This document shows, in pieces, positions 29,971-63,704 of a stretch of 64,000 nucleotides of DNA. The notes below the pieces were generated by a model. The model was not told where the DNA came from and made no database searches. It saw nothing but the letters and a program-made list of their open reading frames with translations. Source of the DNA: Dehalococcoidia bacterium (GTDB lineage Bacteria > Chloroflexota > Dehalococcoidia > UBA6926); assembly GCA_965220565.1 (NCBI GenBank), contig CBDCQG010000001.1, forward strand, positions 532,297-596,296. The letters run 5' to 3'. Each line of letters opens with the position of its first letter. The first letter of the stretch is position 1. The position numbers were made by a program, and so were the translations under genes.

Positions 29971-30062
29971 CGGAGGGTAGCGGAGTCGAACCGCAATGCT
30001 AGGTGTCTTCTAGCACTCAAGGGATTCGCAGTCCCTGTCCCGTCCGACGGGCAATACCCTCC
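29971..30062 (-). tRNA. non-canonical tRNA with 8/4 (allo-tRNA-like) fold, anticodon GCG, long variable arm, G73
   Basis: Minus strand folds as GGAGGGUA/UACCCUCC acceptor (8 bp), CCCGU/ACGGG D-stem, AGGGA-CUGCGAA-UCCCU anticodon arm, AGUGCUAG/CUAGCAUU variable stem, GCGG-UUCGACU-CCGC T-arm (4 bp), followed by G-CC. Confidence 0.85.
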
Positions 30063-30065
30063 CCG

Positions 30066-52277: not shown

Positions 52278-53252
52278 TTGGTAGCGACGGTTGACCGCGC
52301 GCGCGAAGTTGTCGACAAGACGTTGGAGAACGTCGAACGGGTGATAGTAGGAAAGCGCGCGGCTGCGGAGCTTGCCCTGACGGCGGTATTGGGCGGAGGC
52401 CACTTCCTGATCGAGGACGTGCCCGGCGTCGGCAAGACAATGCTGGCCCGCAGCGTCGCCACCTCCCTCGGCGCATCCTTCAAGCGCGTGCAGTTCACGC
52501 CTGATCTGCTGCCCACCGACGTCATCGGCGTCAACCTCTACAACCAGCGGACCGGCGAGTTCGAGTTCCGCGCAGGCCCCGTTCTCGCTCATATCCTCCT
52601 CGCCGATGAGATCAACCGCGGCACGCCCAAGACCCAATCCGCGCTGTTGGAGGCGATGGAGGAAGGGCAGGTGACGGTGGATGGCGTGACCCATCCTCTC
52701 CCGCAGCCATTTCATGTCATCGCCACGCAGAATCCCCTGGAGCATGAGGGAACGTTCCTGCTGCCCGAGGCGCAGCGGGATCGCTTCTTCCTGCGCCTGT
52801 CGCTTGGCTATCCGACGGTCGACTCCGAGATGGAAATCATGGATCGAACCCGTCTTGAACACCCCATAGATAGTATTGAGCCCGTGACCACGCCGGAAGA
52901 GGCGCTGGATCTCCAACAGACGGTGCGGCAGGTGTACGTGGACGACCTCATCAAGCGATACATCGTCGACATCGTGGACGGCACGCGGGAACACGGCTCC
53001 GTCTACGTCGGGGCGTCCCCGCGCGGCGCGCTGACACTCTTCCGCGGCGGGCAGGCCCGCGCCGTCATGGACGGGCGCGACTATGTCCTGCCGGACGACA
53101 TCAAGTACCTGGTCAATCCGGTCCTGGGACATCGCATCATCCTCAATCCGAACGCCAGGATGCAGGGAATCAGCACGGATGACGTGCTGTCGCAGGTGCT
53201 GGAGCGTGTCCCTGTGCCGGGAGCCGTGCCGCGAGGGTGGCTGCGGAACTGA
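52278..53252 (+). CDS. moxR: MoxR-family AAA+ ATPase
   Basis: EDVPGVGKT, RVQFTPDLLP, DEINR, ATQNP, PEAQ.DRF. Confidence 0.95.
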   Translation: MVATVDRAREVVDKTLENVERVIVGKRAAAELALTAVLGGGHFLIEDVPGVGKTMLARSVATSLGASFKRVQFTPDLLPTDVIGVNLYNQRTGEFEFRAGPVLAHILLADEINRGTPKTQSALLEAMEEGQVTVDGVTHPLPQPFHVIATQNPLEHEGTFLLPEAQRDRFFLRLSLGYPTVDSEMEIMDRTRLEHPIDSIEPVTTPEEALDLQQTVRQVYVDDLIKRYIVDIVDGTREHGSVYVGASPRGALTLFRGGQARAVMDGRDYVLPDDIKYLVNPVLGHRIILNPNARMQGISTDDVLSQVLERVPVPGAVPRGWLRN

Positions 53253-53261
53253 GGGAACACC

Positions 53262-54518
53262 GTGCGGAGTCGCCGCGTCTATCTCGCCGCGCTGATCCTG
53301 ATGGCGCTGTTCCTGACCCTCGGGTCGGGATTCTACGTCATGTCCTACCTTCTCAGCGCCGTCATCGGCGTGTTCGTCCTGGCATGGCTCTGGACCAGGC
53401 TCAGCATGAGAGGCATCTCCGCCGGCGCTGATGATCAACCCTCCCTCGCCCAGGTGGGAGAGCGCGTGGAAGAGTCCGTCTGGCTTCAGAATTCATCCCT
53501 CCTTCCCCGCCCCTGGCTGCATGTTGAGGACATCGGCGACGTTCCCAGACTTGCGTCTGAGGTCATGGGCGTGCCCACGCGCGGCTCGCGGAACTGGACG
53601 AAACTGGGAACGCGGGCAGACACACGCGGCCGCTTTCACTGGGGTCCGTTGCGTGTCACCGCATCCGACCCCTTCGGCCTCTTTGAAATGACAAGAGTTA
53701 TCGGTGAAAAACGCGAGCTGGTCGTCTACCCGGCCCCGTTCCCACTGGAGGACTTCGTCATCTCCAGCGCAGAGGAGACCGGCGACGCGCCGGACTACCG
53801 CGCAACGTCCCAATTCACTCCCAACGTCGTCTCCGTCCGACGCTACACCGTCGGAGACAGCCTGAACCGCATCCACTGGAAGAGCAGCGCCAAGCTCAAC
53901 CGCTTGATGGTCAAGGAGTTTGAGACGGAGGTGCAGTCCGATCTCGCCATCCTGCTCGACCTCAACGCCGCCGTGCAGGTGGGTGAGGGCCTGACCGGAA
54001 CGGAAGAGGTTGCCGTCACGGTCGCCGCATCTCTTGCGCGATACTTGCTCGAATTTGACAACGGTGTTGGATTCTCCGCGATCGGCGACACGGAATACAC
54101 CATCCCCAACGGCACCGGCGATAAGCACATGTGGCGCATCTTGGAAGCACTGGCGCTCTGCAAAGCCGAGGGCAGGGTAAGCCTGAGTGAGTTGCTTGGC
54201 ATCCACGAGGCTCGTTTCAGCAGACGAACCGGCGTTATTGCCGTCACTCCGTCCGTTGAGGACGCGATGGCCGCCGCTAGCGTGCTGCAGGAGCGAAACT
54301 CCCCGGGAGCAGTCGTCCTCCTGGAGCCCACAAGCTTCGGAGCGCCCGGGGATTACACAGCGGAGTTGGCGACTCTCTACTCCATGGGCATCGCCGCCTA
54401 CGTCGTTCGCCTCGGTGACGATATTTCGCGGGCGCTGAGCTTCAACGCGCTCGGGCCCATCGCCATGCAGCCCGGTAATCGTCGCAGCTTTACGCGACCT
54501 GAAAGGTGGGGGGCGTGA
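53262..54518 (+). CDS. DUF58 domain protein
   Basis: DPFGLF, VRRYTVGDSLNRIHWKSSAK. Confidence 0.92.
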   Translation: MRSRRVYLAALILMALFLTLGSGFYVMSYLLSAVIGVFVLAWLWTRLSMRGISAGADDQPSLAQVGERVEESVWLQNSSLLPRPWLHVEDIGDVPRLASEVMGVPTRGSRNWTKLGTRADTRGRFHWGPLRVTASDPFGLFEMTRVIGEKRELVVYPAPFPLEDFVISSAEETGDAPDYRATSQFTPNVVSVRRYTVGDSLNRIHWKSSAKLNRLMVKEFETEVQSDLAILLDLNAAVQVGEGLTGTEEVAVTVAASLARYLLEFDNGVGFSAIGDTEYTIPNGTGDKHMWRILEALALCKAEGRVSLSELLGIHEARFSRRTGVIAVTPSVEDAMAAASVLQERNSPGAVVLLEPTSFGAPGDYTAELATLYSMGIAAYVVRLGDDISRALSFNALGPIAMQPGNRRSFTRPERWGA

Positions 54519-56857
54519 GCACGGAAGCGCGGCGCATGCCGCCTACCCAGCCCGCCTCTATGCCGCAGTGGCTGACCCGCGCGTGGCATCGCCTGGTGAC
54601 GTATCCGGACACAGGATGGCTGACAGTCTTCTTGGCGCTTATGGTCGCCGCCACTGTTGTCTGGAGTGTTGAGGACGCCCACTGGGTGCCGGTGATCCCG
54701 GGGGTGGGATTTGCCGTGCTCATCGGGGGCGCGGCAGGGTTGATCAACGCGACGCATCGCCGGAATTACGTCGCCCAACACGCCGTGGCCCTGTTCATCG
54801 CGCTGGCGCAGGCGTTCGCTCAAACGCTCACGGTCGTTACCGCTGCGAGCCTCGAAGGCAAGGCCCTGAGCGCCGGCTATCGCATGACGCTGTGGGCGCA
54901 GGCCCTCCTGGAGGGAGGCGCAAGCACGGATCGGCTGACCTTCGTCTTCCTCCTCCTGCTCGGCGCATGGGCCGTCGCCTATGTCACGGTCTACCTGACC
55001 CTCCTTCTGCGCAACATCTGGGCCACCTTGCCCGCGGGGTTTGCCATCGTCACCAACCTGACGTACCTGCCGCCGAGCACCCTCCCGTTCTTCATGGCGT
55101 TCCTGTTGGCCTCCGCGCTGCTCATCGTCCGCCTCGTGCATCTTGAGCGCCGCCGCAGATGGGATGAAACGACAACCACGCAGGGATCATGGCTGCCCGT
55201 CCACGTCATGCACGCCGGCATCTGGTTCGCGCTCATCATCTTTCTCGTGATCACCGTGGCCCCGACGCTCGACTCGGGCCCGCGATTCATCCGTTCGATG
55301 TGGACGGAGATACGCTCTCCCATCGGTGACGCGGAGGGCACATTCGCCCGCATCTTTGCCTCGCTGCCCGCTCGCCGGTCGATGGGGCTGTTCGGCTTTA
55401 CGGACGAACTGCCGTTCAGGGGAAACATCAACCTGCCCTCTGATGTGTTGATGCACGTCGAGAGCGATGAGCGGCTGTACTGGCGCGCCCGTACCTATGA
55501 CCGGTACGCGCGCTGGGGCTGGAGCAACAGCCCACTCGTCGTTGCTGAGCGGCGCGGCCTGGAAGACATCGCCGGAAGCAGTTACACCGGCTGCGCGGAG
55601 TGCATCAGGAACGTGACCTTTGAACTCAAGGCCCCGGCCAGCACGGTCTTTACCGCCGCCACCCCGCTCCGCACCACGCTGCCCGTCGAGGCCCAATTCA
55701 CCAACCTCGACGTCGACGAAGGCCATCGGCTGGTCAAGCTGGAAAGCCAGGACGTTCTGCAGCCCAACCAGCGGTATACCGTTCAGAGCTATGTCCCCCA
55801 GGTAACCGTCGAGAATATGAGCACGCTCACTCCCAACTATGAGAACTGGGTGACGGAGAGGTATCTGCAGCTGCCGGACGACCTCCCGCCGCGCGTCCGG
55901 CTGCTGTCCGAATCACTGGCTCAGAATGTCGATACGCCGTACCTCAAGGCCATCGCAATCCGGGAATACCTGCGGACGCTCGAATATTCGCAGAACATCA
56001 ACGCCCCTCCGCCCGGCGCCGATGGCCTCGAGCATTTCCTTTTCAGAGAACGGGCAGGGTATAGCGAGTATTTTGGCTCCGCCATGACGGTCATGCTTCG
56101 TGCGGCGGGCGTTCCGTCTCGAATGGTGGTCGGGTATCTGCCCGGTGAGTACAGCGACGAGCTGGGCGCGTTTGTTGTCCGCGAGACTGATCTCCATTCC
56201 TGGGCGGAGGCCTATTTCCCGGGATACGGATGGATTCCGTTTGAGGCGACACCGAATGTCGAGCCGGACGCCCCCGGCGGCCCGACGGGTACTTTCTCCG
56301 CCCTCGTTCCGGACGTTGACCTCGAACTCGCCGCCGATCTTGGCGCATTTGCATTTGAAGAGGCAGATCTGCTTCTGGAGGATAGTTTTTTCCAGTTCGG
56401 CGATGAGACCTTTGAAGACGCCGGGGGTGGCCTGATCCCCGGCGTGGGAGGCATTGATCCAAGGGTGTGGTACGCAGCCGGAGGAGCGGTTGGCGTTGCC
56501 GCGCTGGCAGCCATCCTCTTCTTGTGGTGGCAGGCCCTCGCGCGGCCGCGCACGGCGGGGAGGGCATACGCGCAAACCGTTCGCCTGGGGCGGCTGGCCG
56601 GCATCAAGACCCGGTCGGACGAAACTCCGGCGGAATATATCAGCCGCGTTTCCGCCGCGTGGCCTCGCGCAACATGGGCGCTTTATGGTGTAGTGCAGTG
56701 GTACGACCATGTCCTGTACGGCCCTGATAAGGACGCCCCGCCGGACAGGCCGTTCTCATGGCGCGCCATCGTCTTTGGGCTGCTGGCGCTCACATTCCTG
56801 AGATTCGTTCCCAGAGGGCGCGCCCGGGTGAGAAGGAGAACTGCAGATGCAAGCTAA
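54515..56857 (+). CDS. multi-TM transglutaminase-like protein (TgpA-type)
   Basis: LYWRARTYD, GYSEYFGSAM, HSWAEAYFPGYGWIPFEATP, C-terminal ETPAEY. Confidence 0.9.
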   Translation: MSTEARRMPPTQPASMPQWLTRAWHRLVTYPDTGWLTVFLALMVAATVVWSVEDAHWVPVIPGVGFAVLIGGAAGLINATHRRNYVAQHAVALFIALAQAFAQTLTVVTAASLEGKALSAGYRMTLWAQALLEGGASTDRLTFVFLLLLGAWAVAYVTVYLTLLLRNIWATLPAGFAIVTNLTYLPPSTLPFFMAFLLASALLIVRLVHLERRRRWDETTTTQGSWLPVHVMHAGIWFALIIFLVITVAPTLDSGPRFIRSMWTEIRSPIGDAEGTFARIFASLPARRSMGLFGFTDELPFRGNINLPSDVLMHVESDERLYWRARTYDRYARWGWSNSPLVVAERRGLEDIAGSSYTGCAECIRNVTFELKAPASTVFTAATPLRTTLPVEAQFTNLDVDEGHRLVKLESQDVLQPNQRYTVQSYVPQVTVENMSTLTPNYENWVTERYLQLPDDLPPRVRLLSESLAQNVDTPYLKAIAIREYLRTLEYSQNINAPPPGADGLEHFLFRERAGYSEYFGSAMTVMLRAAGVPSRMVVGYLPGEYSDELGAFVVRETDLHSWAEAYFPGYGWIPFEATPNVEPDAPGGPTGTFSALVPDVDLELAADLGAFAFEEADLLLEDSFFQFGDETFEDAGGGLIPGVGGIDPRVWYAAGGAVGVAALAAILFLWWQALARPRTAGRAYAQTVRLGRLAGIKTRSDETPAEYISRVSAAWPRATWALYGVVQWYDHVLYGPDKDAPPDRPFSWRAIVFGLLALTFLRFVPRGRARVRRRTADAS

Positions 56858-57449
56858 TGCCTACCGGACTATCTCAACACCGCTTGGATTCCTCGGCCTC
56901 GTCGCTTCTCCAAAGGGCCTCAAGGCAGTCTTGGGACCGCATGATGACCGAGAACTCGTCGAGCAGGAACGCGCCGAGATCCTTGCTCCACTGAGTGACG
57001 ACCCCGCCGGCGAGATCCTCAATCACTGGGCGGATGTTCTCTTACGCTACACAAACGGGGAGACGATGGACCTCTCCGGTCCGATGGACATGGACGGCGG
57101 CACGGAATTCCAGCGCGCCGTCTGGCAGGCGCTCACGGAGATTCCCGCCGGCGCCGTGTGGACATACGGTGACGTTGCCCACGCTATCGGCAGGCCAAAG
57201 GCGGCGCGTGCCGTTGGACAGGCCGTTGGCGCTAATCCGCTCGGAATCGCCGTTCCTTGACATCGTGTCGTGGGCGCGGACGGCGCCCTGACCGGTTTCG
57301 GCGGCGGACTCGCCACCAAGGAACGCCTCCTCCTCCATGAGGGTTGGGCGGACGCATCGAAACAGCGAGAGCGGACTGAGTCCCGGGCCGGATTCAGGCT
57401 GACGCGCCGTGAGCGAGGTCTGCGGCCCCGCATCGGCGTCATCGACTAG
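56847..57449 (+). CDS. ogt: methylated-DNA--protein-cysteine methyltransferase, predicted selenoprotein (UGA at the active-site Cys)
   Basis: GTEFQ..VW, ARAVG...[30 protein letters not shown]; read-through ends at TAG 57449. Confidence 0.9.
57261..57293 (+). promoter_or_regulatory. putative bacterial SECIS element of ogt
   Basis: 11 nt after the UGA comes the stem GGGCGC-GGACG-GCGCCC, with a G-first loop and GTC/GAC lower pairs. Confidence 0.75.
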
Positions 57450-59841: not shown

Positions 59842-60999
59842 ATGACAATGCGAGGCGCAGCGGCAATAGTGGGATTCGCGGAGATGCCGACGCGGCGCAC
59901 GTATGAGGGCCGCACGGCGCTCGGGCTCATGGCGGAGGCGTCACGTGACGCAATGGCAGACGCCGGCATCCGCAAGGAAGAAATCGATGGGCTTGTCGTC
60001 GAGGGCGGCAGCTTCTACCCCGCTCCCATCGGCGAATACATGGGCCTCAACCCCAACTTTGTAACGGGTGTCAGCACCATGGGCGCGAGCGGCGCAACGG
60101 CCACATCCGTCGCGGCGATGGCCATCTATTCCGGCCTCGCCACCACTGTTCTCGTCACGCTGTCCGAGGCCCGCCAGGCAGGAAGCCCATGGGGCAGCCC
60201 TCCCTCACCGGGCTTGAGGACCGAATTTGAAGATCCGTATGGCCCTGCCGTGGCGGCCAACACGGGCTATGGCCTCATGTATTCCCGCCACATGGCCGAA
60301 TACGGCACGACGCAAGAGCAGTTGGCCAACATCTCCGTGAACCAGCGATTCAACGCGTTGGAGAACGAGAACGCGGTGTTCCGCGGCCAGCCGCTGACCA
60401 TCGATGACGTGCTCAATTCGCGGTACATCAACTATCCGATCCGGCTATTGGAATCCGTCATGCCCTGCGCGGGTGGATCGGCCATCATCCTCACGTCGGC
60501 GGAGAGAGCCAAATCGTTGAGGAACAAGCCGGTGTACATCCTGGGCGCGGGAATCGCGTGTGATCCGCTTTCGGGTTGGCAGCGGGAACGCCTGACACGC
60601 TCCGTCGTCACACGGTCGGCCCCCATCGCGCTTGGGATGGCCGGATACGGGCCGTCGGATATCCAGTTCGCCCAGTTCTATGACTGCTACACCATCCTGC
60701 ATGCCGTTTGTCTTGAGGATGCGGGGCTTGTGCCCAAGGGGGACATCGGCCCCTTCTTCGCCTCAACGGACACCACGTATAAGGGCGAGTTTCCGATTAA
60801 CACGGACGGCGGGCAGCTCTCATGCGGCCAGCCCGGCGATGCCGGGGGATTCCGCCACGTGATCGAGGCGACGCGGCAGATCATGGGCCGCGGCGGTGTC
60901 AGACAGGTTGAGCGCAATGATCTCTGCCTGGTGAACGGTTGAGGCGGCACGGTGTCCAGTATGGCCACCCTGGTCCTCGGGTCCGAGGCCACGCTCTAG
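59842..60999 (+). CDS. thiolase-fold (SCP-x/Ltp2-like) protein, predicted selenoprotein (in-frame UGA at 60940..60942)
   Basis: AAIVG, YDCYT, PINTDGGQLS; after the TGA the frame continues GGTVSSMATLVLGSEATL-TAG, the normal final strand of this family. Confidence 0.85.
60943..60969 (+). promoter_or_regulatory. putative SECIS element of the thiolase-like gene
   Basis: GGTGTCC-AGTAT-GGCCACC hairpin with one mismatch; loop starts about 16 nt after the UGA and has G at position 2. Confidence 0.55.
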
Positions 61000-61055
61000 A
61001 AGAAACGGAGTATCGCGGCGGGATATTCTCGTTCGCGTCTGAGTGAGATACAGCG

Positions 61056-61490
61056 ATGACGACTGAATACACAAAGCCCCTGCCGATCCCCGGCGGACTG
61101 CACGGAACGACGTTGGGCGACTTTACCAAGCCGTTCTGGGAGGCGACGAAGCGGCACGAGCTGGTGATCCAGCGTTGCCGCACGTGTGACAGGTTCTTCT
61201 TCTATCCGCGTGAGCTTTGCCCCACCTGCCTCTCCGACAATCTCGAATGGGCGCCGGTCTCGGGGCGTGGACGCGTCCACGCCTTCACCATCGTCTACCA
61301 GCCCAACGATCCCCGATTCAACGAGGACGTGCCCTATGTGTACGCCGTCATCCAACTTGATGAAGGCGCGCGCATGATCTCGAACGTCATCGACATCGAG
61401 CCACACGATGTCCAGGTTGACATGCCCGTCGTCGCCGTTTTTGAGGACATCACGCCTGAATGGACGCTGGTGAAATTCAAACCTGCGTGA
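61056..61490 (+). CDS. DUF35 zinc-ribbon/OB-fold protein (thiolase partner)
   Basis: PFWEA, CRTC...PR..CPTC, SGRG, PYV.A...LDEG. Confidence 0.93.
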   Translation: MTTEYTKPLPIPGGLHGTTLGDFTKPFWEATKRHELVIQRCRTCDRFFFYPRELCPTCLSDNLEWAPVSGRGRVHAFTIVYQPNDPRFNEDVPYVYAVIQLDEGARMISNVIDIEPHDVQVDMPVVAVFEDITPEWTLVKFKPA

Positions 61491-61497
61491 CTCGTCG

Positions 61498-62811
61498 ATG
61501 AGCGGCCCACCGGCCGCTGCGCTATCTACGCCGCCCACCGGGAATCGAACCGGATGGATTGTCATGTCCGCCCTCTGGGCGGTCGACGGCACGTCCACGG
61601 TGATGATCTTCCTGATCGGGCTGACGCTGCCGGAGATTCGCGATGAGTTCAACATCAGCCCTGTCCAGGAGGGCTACCTGGGGTCGGCGTTCTTTGTCGC
61701 GCTGACGACTCTCTCCCTGCCATCCGCGATCTGGATGTCCAGGTTCAGCCCGCGCCTCGTGACGCTGCTGGCCCTCATCGGCATGACCGTCACGGCAGTG
61801 CTGCAGGGCATCGCGCCGAACTACTGGATCCTGTTGGCGGCAAGGCTCATGTTCATGTATGCGCTTGTCTCCAGGACCCAGGCGGAAGTGATGCTCATCC
61901 AGCAGTGGTTCAGCGGCCCGCGCATCGCCACCCTGAACTCCATAACAGTCGCGAGCTTTGGCATTGGCCAACTGGCGGCAATCGGCCTCGTGCCGATACT
62001 CATGCCGCACGTCGGCGGCTGGCGGGGCATTCATCTCTTGCTTGCCGTCGTTTACGCCGCCGTTGCAATCATCTGGTTCATCGTCGGGCGTGAGCGTGCG
62101 TATCAGGATTCCTCCGCCGATGCCCCTCCAACCGCGCTGCGGGCCGACGGGACGCCGGGCGGCCCCGCCGGTGTGCTCAAGCGCCACCCAATTCTCTTTG
62201 TGATTGCCTCAACCCAGTTCGGCGGGGCGATGGCGTGGGCGACATTCGTCACGTTCTTCCCCACGTTTGCGCAGGAGGAGCACGGCCTGTCGCTGATCAC
62301 GGTGGGTTTGCTCTTCTCGGCATTCCCGATTGGCGGCACGATTGGCTCGCTCAGTGTTGGCCCCTTATCCAACTGGATCAGGCGGCGCAAACCGTTCATC
62401 TTCACCCAGGGATTCATCATGCCCGTTCTCTACCTGGCGATCCTGTCCATGGGCCCTGACAATCCACTGATATCATGGCTGCCCGATAGTTTCTTATCGT
62501 CTGATTCGTGGACGCTGGCATTACTGCCGTTCCTGGTTATCCAGGGAATGATGACGTCCTCCGTCGTGCCGATGATCATGACGGTTCCATTCGACATGCA
62601 ATTCAGACCGCGCGAAGTGGCCGTCGCCGTCGGCCTCATCAGAACCATCACGCCGCTCGGCTCCACCATCGGCCCGGTGCTTGCGGGCGTCCTTCAGGAG
62701 GGGACGGGCTCACTGGCAACGGCGTTGTTCATCGTGCTGCCCGTCTCCGTCACAGTTGGGCTGATCGGCATACTACTACCGGAATCACACCCGTCACGGC
62801 GAACCGGTTAA
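61498..62811 (+). CDS. MFS transporter
   Basis: About 12 hydrophobic segments, MFS-like loops. Confidence 0.87.
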   Translation: MSGPPAAALSTPPTGNRTGWIVMSALWAVDGTSTVMIFLIGLTLPEIRDEFNISPVQEGYLGSAFFVALTTLSLPSAIWMSRFSPRLVTLLALIGMTVTAVLQGIAPNYWILLAARLMFMYALVSRTQAEVMLIQQWFSGPRIATLNSITVASFGIGQLAAIGLVPILMPHVGGWRGIHLLLAVVYAAVAIIWFIVGRERAYQDSSADAPPTALRADGTPGGPAGVLKRHPILFVIASTQFGGAMAWATFVTFFPTFAQEEHGLSLITVGLLFSAFPIGGTIGSLSVGPLSNWIRRRKPFIFTQGFIMPVLYLAILSMGPDNPLISWLPDSFLSSDSWTLALLPFLVIQGMMTSSVVPMIMTVPFDMQFRPREVAVAVGLIRTITPLGSTIGPVLAGVLQEGTGSLATALFIVLPVSVTVGLIGILLPESHPSRRTG

Positions 62812-62912: not shown

Positions 62913-63704
62913 CTATCGCCCCTTCCACTCCGGCGTGCGCCGCTCGGCAAAGGCGGCAGGGCCGACGGCGGCGTCCTCGCTGCCAAGCACCTTCGCGGTC
63001 AACTCCTGTGCGAACCTGTACGAGTACTCCGGCGGCATGCTGCGGCCCACGTATGCAATCTGCTTGATCGCCTGAACGGCCAACGGCGCGCAGAGCTTGA
63101 CCTCCTCCGCGATGCCCTCCGCTGCCTCCATCAGCGCGTCGCGATCCGGATGCACTTCCTGGATCAGGCCGATTCGCAGCGCAGTATCGGACATGATGCG
63201 GCTGCCCGTCAGCATCATCCGCAGCGCGTCGCCCGTCGGAACCATCCGCATCATGTGGTGCAGGCCGTAGGCGGGCATGATGCTCCAACGCGGCTCCGGC
63301 AGGCCGAACTGCGACTTCTCCGTTGCGAGACGGATATCGGTCTGCATGGCGAGCTCAAGGCCGCCCGCGACGCAATAGCCGTCGATGGCGGAGATGATTG
63401 GCTTCCAGACGTTGAGGTCCGGGATGAACCTCGAACCGGGCCCTCTCGATTCGAACTGAGATTTCCCTTCCGCCTGCCTGCCACTGACCTCTTTGAGATC
63501 TGCGCCGGCGGAGAATGCCCGGCCGCCCGCGCCGGTGAGGATCGCAACCAGCAGATCGTCATCGTCGCGGAAATCGCTCCAGATCTCGTAGAGGCGCGCG
63601 CCCACCGCGGAATTCAGCGCGTTCATCGCCTCCGGTCGATTCAACGTCACGTAAGCGATGCGATTCCGCTTTTCGTATAGGACAACGTCTGATGAACCTG
63701 TCAT
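62913..63704 (-). CDS. enoyl-CoA hydratase/isomerase family protein
   Basis: LNRPEAMNAL, FSAGADL, AGGLELA, FGLPE, AFAERRTPEWKGR. Confidence 0.93.
   Translation of the reverse strand: MTGSSDVVLYEKRNRIAYVTLNRPEAMNALNSAVGARLYEIWSDFRDDDDLLVAILTGAGGRAFSAGADLKEVSGRQAEGKSQFESRGPGSRFIPDLNVWKPIISAIDGYCVAGGLELAMQTDIRLATEKSQFGLPEPRWSIMPAYGLHHMMRMVPTGDALRMMLTGSRIMSDTALRIGLIQEVHPDRDALMEAAEGIAEEVKLCAPLAVQAIKQIAYVGRSMPPEYSYRFAQELTAKVLGSEDAAVGPAAFAERRTPEWKGR

Follow-up and report, generated by a model that had tools for sequence, protein, structure and literature searches.

Does the thiolase-like gene that begins at position 59842 of this stretch of DNA end at its first in-frame TGA, or is that codon read as selenocysteine (Sec), and if so, what might selenium be doing in a thiolase fold? 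The stretch, hereafter the window, is the whole 64,000 nucleotides (nt) analyzed from a Dehalococcoidia bacterium (assembly GCA_965220565.1, contig CBDCQG010000001.1, positions 532,297 to 596,296). An earlier note, made from the letters of the window, had proposed a candidate selenoenzyme here: a thiolase-fold protein with Sec in its last loop and an active site rebuilt around it, paired with a DUF35 protein. Comparison with homologs makes it very probable that the UGA is decoded as Sec and that the protein is a genuine selenoprotein; the rebuilding of the active site did not hold up. The best explanation overall, which we consider quite likely, joins Sec decoding to an aldolase of the Sal/Ltp2 type, in which Sec367 would act as an acid/base group together with Cys282.

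The reading frame and its continuation

Under translation table 11, the open reading frame (ORF) 59842..60942 on the forward strand closes at a TGA (60940-60942, codon 367) directly after ...NDLCLVNG. As the earlier note had stated, the same frame remains open past it, for 18 codons (60943..60996, GGTVSSMATLVLGSEATL) to a TAG at 60997-60999; with TGA translated as U, the gene (59842..60999, forward strand) encodes 385 residues before the TAG, with the predicted Sec367 in a VNG-U-GG motif. The domain match also spans the interruption: Pfam Thiolase_C_1 covers residues 243-380 of the read-through protein. In an AlphaFold (AF2) model (predicted local distance difference test, pLDDT, 91.1; predicted template-modeling score, pTM, 0.93), the tail forms the last beta-strand (373-380), pairing with strand 361-365, and the same final strand is found in full-length non-Sec homologs and in all solved relatives. 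The model places Sec367 between these two strands in the Cβ4-Cβ5 “CxG” loop, the location foreseen in the earlier note.

Conservation of the TGA and coding character of the tail

A protein search returned 2192 relatives, and most of the best 120, on which lengths were judged, have about 366 residues at 95% query coverage; these proteins therefore all end at one point. When the DNA of 301 genomes from the class was searched (E ≤ 1e-60), 131 gave matches. The family's 17 other genomes, 16 of which belong to the same genus, are all among them, and many of the matches contain one or two in-frame TGAs. Interrupting stops other than TGA were rare in this search (one TAA, one TAG; two 42%-identity matches). 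In a fetched set of 75 full-length genes at 73 loci, in which genes without stops were included on purpose, codon 367 is TGA in 50 cases and some other codon in 25. An independent scan, in which each of 185,579 species was represented by a single genome, brought up 247 relatives; in the best 76 loci, which were analyzed further, codon 367 is TGA without exception, and all of these loci come from Dehalococcoidia, Chloroflexota or SAR202 metagenome-assembled genomes.

These counts bear on one alternative, that the TGA arose through an error of sequencing or through a recent nonsense mutation that left a pseudogene; it has the bare stop codon in its favor and nothing more. Error is excluded because the same TGA recurs in independent assemblies: besides the 76 scan loci, it is kept in all 16 best-match loci of the genus (L030-L045), which come from 16 different genomes. 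A mutation private to this sequence is rejected on the same counts, and we give this alternative a negligible probability. The earlier note had also allowed that homologs might carry Trp here and that the TGA might be unique; it is present in many genomes, and Trp is not the norm in the homologs examined.

Another alternative is a true stop, with a product of 366 residues and with downstream conservation owed to an RNA element (a terminator, for instance) or to translational coupling with the DUF35 gene. Databases do annotate proteins of about 366 residues throughout, and the interval from the TGA to the DUF35 start contains two hairpins. The sequence of the tail is difficult to reconcile with this. 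In the 41 unique tails of 18 codons, the first, second and third codon positions have nucleotide entropies of 0.63, 0.58 and 1.19, against 0.62, 0.46 and 1.29 in the 18 codons upstream of the TGA, so that third-position variability equals that of the preceding coding sequence, and none of the 41 contains an in-frame stop. Conservation extends beyond the RNA to the peptide (GG-x-x-S-x-M-x-[TS]-L-V-L-G-S), which is kept across 45-99% identity and encodes the last strand of the fold, found in every full-length homolog and solved relative. The 18-codon tail evolves as coding sequence, and a true stop is extremely improbable.

Selenocysteine machinery and the use of UGA

A conserved TGA and a coding tail prove continued translation, not the identity of the inserted residue, and it could be argued that the UGA is read as a standard amino acid (Trp, Cys or Gly). 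The machinery for Sec insertion, whose absence the earlier note had held out as a decisive objection, is complete in the source genome (1.97 Mb in 4 contigs, 92.9% complete). A search for selA, selB, selC and selD found a tRNA-Sec (RF01852, 64.9 bits; called SeC with anticodon TCA by ARAGORN), selA (TIGR00474, 542 bits), selB (TIGR00475, 311 bits; the C-terminal part is matched separately, in one frame of 633 residues) and selD (TIGR00476, 391 bits). The selD gene (L018; G000:C1:1322754-1323677, reverse strand) is itself of the Sec type, with one in-frame TGA in the motif CAG-U-AAKLG, followed by a hairpin (UUGCGCA/GGUCU/UGCGCAA) whose loop begins 36 nt from the UGA.

A second recoded gene lies in the window itself, about 3 kb upstream of the thiolase-like gene and outside the enzyme, and bears out a further claim of the earlier note. 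In the ogt gene (O6-alkylguanine-DNA alkyltransferase; 56847..57449, forward strand), a TGA at 57258-57260 sits exactly at the active-site Cys of the PCHRV motif (IAVP-U-HRVV); Pfam DNA_binding_1 (residues 87-166) runs across it, and a hairpin with a GGACG loop follows on its 3' side (z -2.07). The Sec-type ogt family is an already catalogued selenoprotein.

UGA nonetheless keeps its usual meaning in ordinary genes of the window. TGA is the normal stop of the genes for serine hydroxymethyltransferase, an amidase, HisF, a short-chain dehydrogenase/reductase (SDR), DnaJ and other proteins, and of the DUF35 gene as well; a global reassignment of UGA was rejected on this account. The window contains 88 read-through candidates, and a Pfam domain crossing the TGA was found in 0 of the 48 scanned. 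The complete machinery with its Sec-type selD, the TGA ends of ordinary genes, the structured RNA past the TGA (as SelB-dependent decoding requires) and the TGA exactly at the catalytic Cys of ogt all argue against a standard residue at position 367, which we regard as very improbable.

Two other features of the window touch on the same subject. At 52278-54515 (forward strand), a gene for a MoxR-type AAA_3 ATPase and a DUF58 gene lie in one frame with a single TGA between them; these look like two ordinary adjacent genes with no recoding. At 29971-30063 (reverse strand) is a tRNA of 93 nt that ARAGORN calls tRNA-Arg (anticodon GCG), while its sole Rfam match is tRNA-Sec, over the full model, at 45 bits against a gathering threshold of 47. 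It has a long extra arm and the anticodon loop CUGCGAA, and the true tRNA-Sec (TCA) is elsewhere in the genome. This combination of tRNA-Sec shape and Arg anticodon is one that we take to resemble the published “allo-tRNAs.”

RNA structure downstream of the UGA

The earlier note had seen one hairpin past the UGA; two were found, and either may be the bacterial selenocysteine insertion sequence (bSECIS). Hairpin 1, the first candidate (60951..60969, forward strand), is GGUGUCC/AGUAU/GGCCACC (-7.7 kcal/mol, z -1.67); hairpin 2, the second (60973..60990, forward strand), is GUCCUCG/GGUC/CGAGGCC (-10.7 kcal/mol, z -1.79).

Seen in the window sequence alone, both are unremarkable for GC-rich RNA, and their support is comparative. 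A hairpin stands at the place of hairpin 1 in most Sec homologs, with differing sequences and slightly shifted registers. When the peptide was held fixed and codons were redrawn, 47 Sec genes proved more structured than their synonymous recodings at both places (mean z -1.41 for hairpin 1, -1.77 for hairpin 2), the corresponding values for 25 non-Sec homologs being -0.50 and -0.02; in the window gene, hairpin 2 reaches z -2.3 by the same measure. Covariation was assessed in a fixed register over 35 sequences, with slid and shuffled controls. Of the cells expected to pair, 67% do so, against 33-48% in the slid controls, and compensatory changes on both sides occur in 27 cells, a number reached in 0 of 500 shuffles; pair 20-28 of hairpin 1, for example, varies between UA (11 sequences) and AU (10), and pair 36-49 of hairpin 2 between CG (9) and UA (6). 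A conserved coding tail and hairpin among homologs were what the earlier note had proposed to look for.

Several observations weigh against reading these hairpins as Sec signals. The whole 59 nt past the UGA has z -0.19, 83 of 200 shuffles folding equally well, and hairpin 1 of the window gene has z only -0.5 against synonymous recodings. The published bSECIS model calls for a loop of 3-9 nt with G in its first two positions, a stem of at least 4 bp, a spacing of 16-37 nt past the UGA and a minimum free energy (MFE) of -7.5 kcal/mol or lower (PMC13188914), and the loop spacings here, 15 nt for hairpin 1 and 37 nt for hairpin 2, are at the edges of that range, so that both hairpins satisfy the model fully or nearly. 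Nor is a hairpin at the place of hairpin 1 specific to Sec genes: several Asn homologs, L084 and L098 among them, have a strong one there too.

The Asn-type genes deserve a remark of their own. In L084, L098 and L090, codon 367 is AAC, and the hairpin at the hairpin 1 place has a strong stem of 8-9 bp; it may be a SECIS relic or a structure that predates the acquisition of Sec. A second position discussed below, codon 282, is followed by no excess structure (mean z -0.22 in 16 genes with Sec there, -0.18 in 59 others); the hairpin GAGGC/CGUGU/GCCUC after it exists because the LEAVCLE peptide dictates it.

Protein family and active site

What kind of thiolase-fold protein is this? In a phmmer search of the PDB, the best match is 9myr_A (E 7.8e-79), followed by 4u4e (3.1e-72) and 6ok1 (8.1e-33), and Foldseek also ranks 9myr_A first for the model (template-modeling score, TM, 0.92; 40% identity). 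This entry is the complex of CtSal, a bile-acid side-chain aldolase of Comamonas testosteroni, with Shy(DUF35). Residue correspondences given here come from the phmmer alignment to CtSal, with roles taken from PMC12329534.

The YDCY motif (Y280, D281, C282, Y283; 60679..60690, forward strand) aligns column for column with Tyr302-Asp-Cys304-Tyr of CtSal, where, according to the same paper, the variants Y302F and C304A/S/H had no detectable activity (PMC12329534). Q325 corresponds to CtSal Gln347 and G369 to its oxyanion-hole Gly391. The nucleophilic Cys of thiolases is absent, as the earlier note had recognized, although its identification of MGASG as standing in for CASG was one residue off: residues 78-84 read STMGASG, and the nucleophile position is G81 (60082..60084, forward strand; CtSal Gly89), not M80, so that the CxS motif reads G-A-S. 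G81 is invariant in two family alignments (A1, A2), and Gly is found there in 128 of 137 aligned representatives among the best 150 matches. The reading of GQP for GHP was correct: residues 327-332 are SCGQPG, with Q330 (60829..60831, forward strand) in place of the His and at the position of CtSal Gln352, and it is conserved in at least 90% of alignment A2.

This active site (Y280/C282, Q325, Q330, G81) is the known site of Sal-type aldolases, judged by alignment, and is common to non-Sec relatives. It has thus not been rebuilt around Sec, and because non-Sec relatives share it, Sec need not supply the missing nucleophile. The protein belongs to the Sal/Ltp2 branch of the thiolase fold and is no thiolase; its chemistry is probably of the Sal-type, aldolase-like kind.

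Two other assignments were considered and rejected. A classical thiolase is contradicted by the motifs (G81-A-S, Y-D-C-Y, G-Q330-P) and by a TIGR01930 score far below its cut-off (19.4 bits against 240); no NCBIfam model reaches its cut-off, and that collection gave no selenoprotein-specific model. Thiolytic cleavage through an acyl-enzyme is excluded because there is neither a CxS Cys (G81) nor a GHP His (Q330). An Ltp2-type aldolase would have YDHF, which reads YDCY here, and Tyr344, whose position is taken by Gln330.

Positions 367 and 282

In thiolases, the main chain of the CxG loop forms an oxyanion hole. Within this loop, Sec367 most probably occupies the exact position of the base Cys378 of classical thiolases, a register favored by three comparisons. 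CtSal Gly391 (G369 here) follows Thr389 (U367 here) by two residues, as Gly380 follows Cys378; a structure-based alignment of MsTLP1 equates CXG with NGG (PMC3406046), and non-Sec homologs have N-G-G at 367-369; and the hydrophobic pattern of the last strand fits the same register.

The earlier note had expected TGA and Cys to alternate at this position. Instead, the alternation is mostly between TGA and Asn: the 16 full-length close non-Sec homologs have Asn in 14 cases, Cys in one (P0097) and Ser in one. A word-based protein search with residues 340-385 for more Cys homologs gave 16 candidates and nothing new. In the tree, Sec forms are interspersed among Asn, Ser and Cys forms, and the codons TGA, TGC, AGC and AAC are connected by single steps.

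Cys and Sec do clearly alternate at another site, position 282, whose Cys is essential in CtSal. Of the 75 fetched genes, 16 have a TGA as codon 282, one of them a paralog in the source genome (L023), and in the best 76 of the 247 scan loci this codon stands for Sec in 36 and for Cys in 40. Every gene with Sec282 also has Sec367 (16/16 fetched genes and 36/36 scan loci, these being related genes whose counts are not independent), and the only close homolog with Cys367, P0097, has Gly282. This coupling suggests that residues 282 and 367 act together or substitute for each other.

Some paralogs are of interest in their own right. In L023 and L024 (G000:C1:1396778-1399691, reverse strand), two thiolase-like genes, each followed by a DUF35 gene, stand in a tandem array. 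Two Sec (YD-U-Y and NG-U-GG) are found in the enzyme encoded first, whereas the second has Ala and Asn at the same sites and thus lacks both thiol and selenol; the two enzymes may be a catalytic and a non-catalytic member of a pair. Elsewhere in the genus, both copies of the array have two TGAs. A more distant paralog, at 48% identity, is represented by L025 (G000:C1:1329701-1330855) and L086, with the motif VNT-U-RG and a covarying hairpin of its own; with the window DUF35 as query, no DUF35 was detected within 1.5 kb of either. In another genome, an ORF with a match to UGSC (L058:709-1011, forward strand), a known selenoprotein family, adjoins a double-Sec thiolase-like gene.

What might Sec367 do?

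The reading that we prefer can be set out as a sequence of steps. The UGA at 60940-60942 would be decoded by SelA, SelB, SelD and tRNA-Sec, directed by a stem-loop within the 18 codons past it (hairpin 1 or hairpin 2), to give a product of 385 residues whose last beta-strand completes the thiolase fold and which, most likely, associates as a heteromer with the product of the adjacent DUF35 gene. Complexes of CtSal and of TcLtp2-ChsH2 with DUF35 have been solved (9MYR, 6OK1), and members of the Sal/Ltp2 branch, which have no Cys nucleophile, carry out retro-aldol C-C cleavage of 3-hydroxyacyl-coenzyme A (CoA) thioesters. By analogy, the enzyme would use acid/base catalysis of the aldol type to break or make a C-C bond in a CoA thioester, with Tyr280 as the base acting on the hydroxyl and Cys282 as proton donor to the enolate, Gln325 and Gln330 being retained as well. 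Sec367 would lie beside Cys282 on the side of the substrate alpha-carbon, where its low-pKa selenol could serve as a proton shuttle. That Sec367 is an acid/base group of this kind, rather than a redox partner, is a tentative choice, to which we would give a little less than an even chance.

A few findings sit poorly with this scheme. The oxyanion-hole Gln161 of CtSal is replaced by Ala139. In a profile alignment to the genome's own classical thiolase, C362, not Sec367, stands opposite Cys378, a register given little weight because its probability is only 4%. Position 367 is variable in the wider family: among the best 150 representatives from a library of 1.84 billion proteins, the 130 that align there include N in 28, T in 17, V and S in 10 each, Q and F in 9 each and C in 2, so that, as far as alignments can tell, it is no conserved catalytic site. 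Because 367 varies so widely, Sec would be a novelty at an active-site position open to many residues, and no conserved Cys would have given way to it.

The main rival gives a genuine Sec367 another role, that of redox partner, joined through space to Cys282 as a selenenylsulfide or, where paralogs have two Sec, to Sec282 as a diselenide; such a bond would shield the catalytic thiol from over-oxidation in oxic seawater, or else turn activity on and off. Sec282 occurs only alongside Sec367, and redox function, with a Cys close by, prevails among known selenoproteins (PMC13188914). Position 367 also tolerates Asn, Thr and Ser in active relatives (Thr389 in CtSal, for example), and is therefore not required for aldol chemistry as such. 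On the other side, no conserved thioredoxin-like or reductase gene was found beside the gene pair in 10 loci, and the genes behind the co-occurrence counts are related, which deprives these counts of independence. Both the redox bond and the protective or switching function ascribed to it seem to us rather unlikely.

A more radical variant would make Sec367 and Cys282 (Sec282 in the double-Sec paralogs) a through-space Se-S or Se-Se redox center, and would couple redox to a reaction at the acyl-CoA alpha-carbon, for example a reductive cleavage like that of glycine reductase, with a selenoether resolved by the nearby thiol or selenol. This is decidedly improbable. If true, it would be selenoenzyme chemistry new to the fold, in SAR202-type bacteria and bearing on refractory marine organic matter.

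Gene neighborhood

The pairing with DUF35 claimed in the earlier note is borne out. The gene immediately 3' of the thiolase-like gene (61056..61490, forward strand) encodes a stand-alone DUF35 protein of 144 residues with a Cys4 zinc ribbon and an oligonucleotide/oligosaccharide-binding (OB) fold (Pfam zf-ChsH2 and OB_ChsH2_C), and a DUF35 gene has this position in 32 of the 33 loci with flanks of 1.5 kb. The protein is presumed to be the structural partner of the Sec thiolase-like protein.

Beyond DUF35, no constant neighbor was found across 10 loci: genes for CoA-transferase III, an SDR, acyl-CoA dehydrogenase and a zinc-dependent alcohol dehydrogenase (Zn-ADH) come and go. The genes beside the pair in other genomes (CoA-transferase III, acyl-CoA dehydrogenase, SDR) point only to acyl-CoA metabolism, and the acyl-CoA substrate proposed above is no more closely specified by them. 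In the window, a gene for a major facilitator superfamily (MFS) transporter (61498..62811, forward strand; Pfam MFS_1) starts 8 nt past the DUF35 gene and is possibly part of the same operon, co-transcription being suggested by gene spacing alone. Next comes a gene with a profile match to crotonase-type enoyl-CoA hydratases (62913-63704), convergent to the thiolase-like gene. No hydratase gene is constant beside the thiolase-like/DUF35 pair in the 10 loci, which counts against the preferred reading.

The zinc ribbon of the window DUF35 (61176-61232) has four Cys (C41, C44, C55, C58). Its close orthologs in L044-L046 have C-x2-H as the first pair, a Cys3His arrangement as in CtShy-DUF35, where it was reported as unusual (PMC12329534).

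Comparison with known systems

The earlier note knew of no characterized family of Sec-containing thiolases, and none was found in the accessible selenoprotein catalogs: a thiolase-fold family is absent among the 119 prokaryotic selenoprotein families and subfamilies in Table 1 of the 2026 catalog (PMC13188914), and the word “thiolase” is absent from the main texts of the Global Ocean Sampling (GOS), deep-Sep and BSepDB papers, whose supplementary tables could hold an entry. The full-text literature yielded no paper on a Sec-containing thiolase or on a DUF35-partnered selenoprotein. Marine Dehalococcoidia/SAR202 have already been noted for very large selenoproteomes (BSepDB paper), and a 2019 review names “thiolase” among selenoenzymes.

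The “selenium-containing thiolase” of Clostridium kluyveri resembles the present case in being a thiolase reported with selenium. Its selenium is said to be non-specific selenomethionine, not UGA-encoded Sec, and the entry in the 2019 review appears to refer to a clostridial thiolase of this kind. What the conserved codons in these genomes point to is, almost certainly, a large and uncatalogued family of selenium enzymes of the thiolase fold in marine Dehalococcoidia, with a Sec codon in all of the best 76 of the 247 scan loci and two in about half of them. The family is mis-annotated wholesale, because gene callers truncate it at 366 residues throughout the public databases.

Among solved structures, CtSal (9MYR) is the closest match in both sequence and fold, and shares the Gly at the nucleophile position, the Tyr and Cys of YDCY, the two Gln flanking the Cys and, as presumed for the window protein, a DUF35 partner (PMC12329534). 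It differs in having Thr389 at the position of Sec367 and Gln161 at that of Ala139, and in a DUF35 fused to a MaoC hydratase (Shy), the window DUF35 being free. The steroid aldolase TcLtp2-ChsH2(DUF35) (6OK1) likewise has no Cys nucleophile, a DUF35 partner and retro-aldol chemistry; unlike the window protein, with its YDCY and Gln330, it has YDHF and Tyr344, and no Sec. The second-best match, 4U4E (E 3.1e-72, TM 0.86), is a putative thiolase of Sphaerobacter thermophilus, also a member of the Chloroflexota, and differs in keeping the His (THP), in T-G-G at the Sec position and in Ser at 282; it is an uncharacterized structural-genomics entry for which no paper was found in the literature. Classical and SCP2 thiolases have the same fold, and the Sec367-G-G and YDCY motifs lie in their CxG and NEAF/HDCF loops, the Cys of HDCF being an acid/base residue in SCP2 thiolases. 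Their CxS Cys and GHP His are missing from the window protein (G81, Q330).

With known bacterial selenoproteins such as Ogt, SelD and FdhA, the gene shares an in-frame UGA, a candidate stem-loop directly 3' of it and a predicted dependence on selABCD, and the GGUC loop of hairpin 2 resembles the loop of the selD hairpin in the source genome. The fold and chemistry would be new among them: if confirmed, this would be the first UGA-encoded Sec enzyme of the thiolase superfamily, and among the few selenoenzymes with likely C-C bond chemistry, not thiol redox. The natural series of Asn, Ser, Cys and Sec at 367, together with Cys and Sec at 282, offers a ready test of selenium in acid/base catalysis. 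The family differs from known selenoproteins also in that its Sec replaces Asn, not Cys, in most relatives; searches that depend on Cys homologs would for this reason tend to miss it, and since such cases escape them, other families of this kind may exist.

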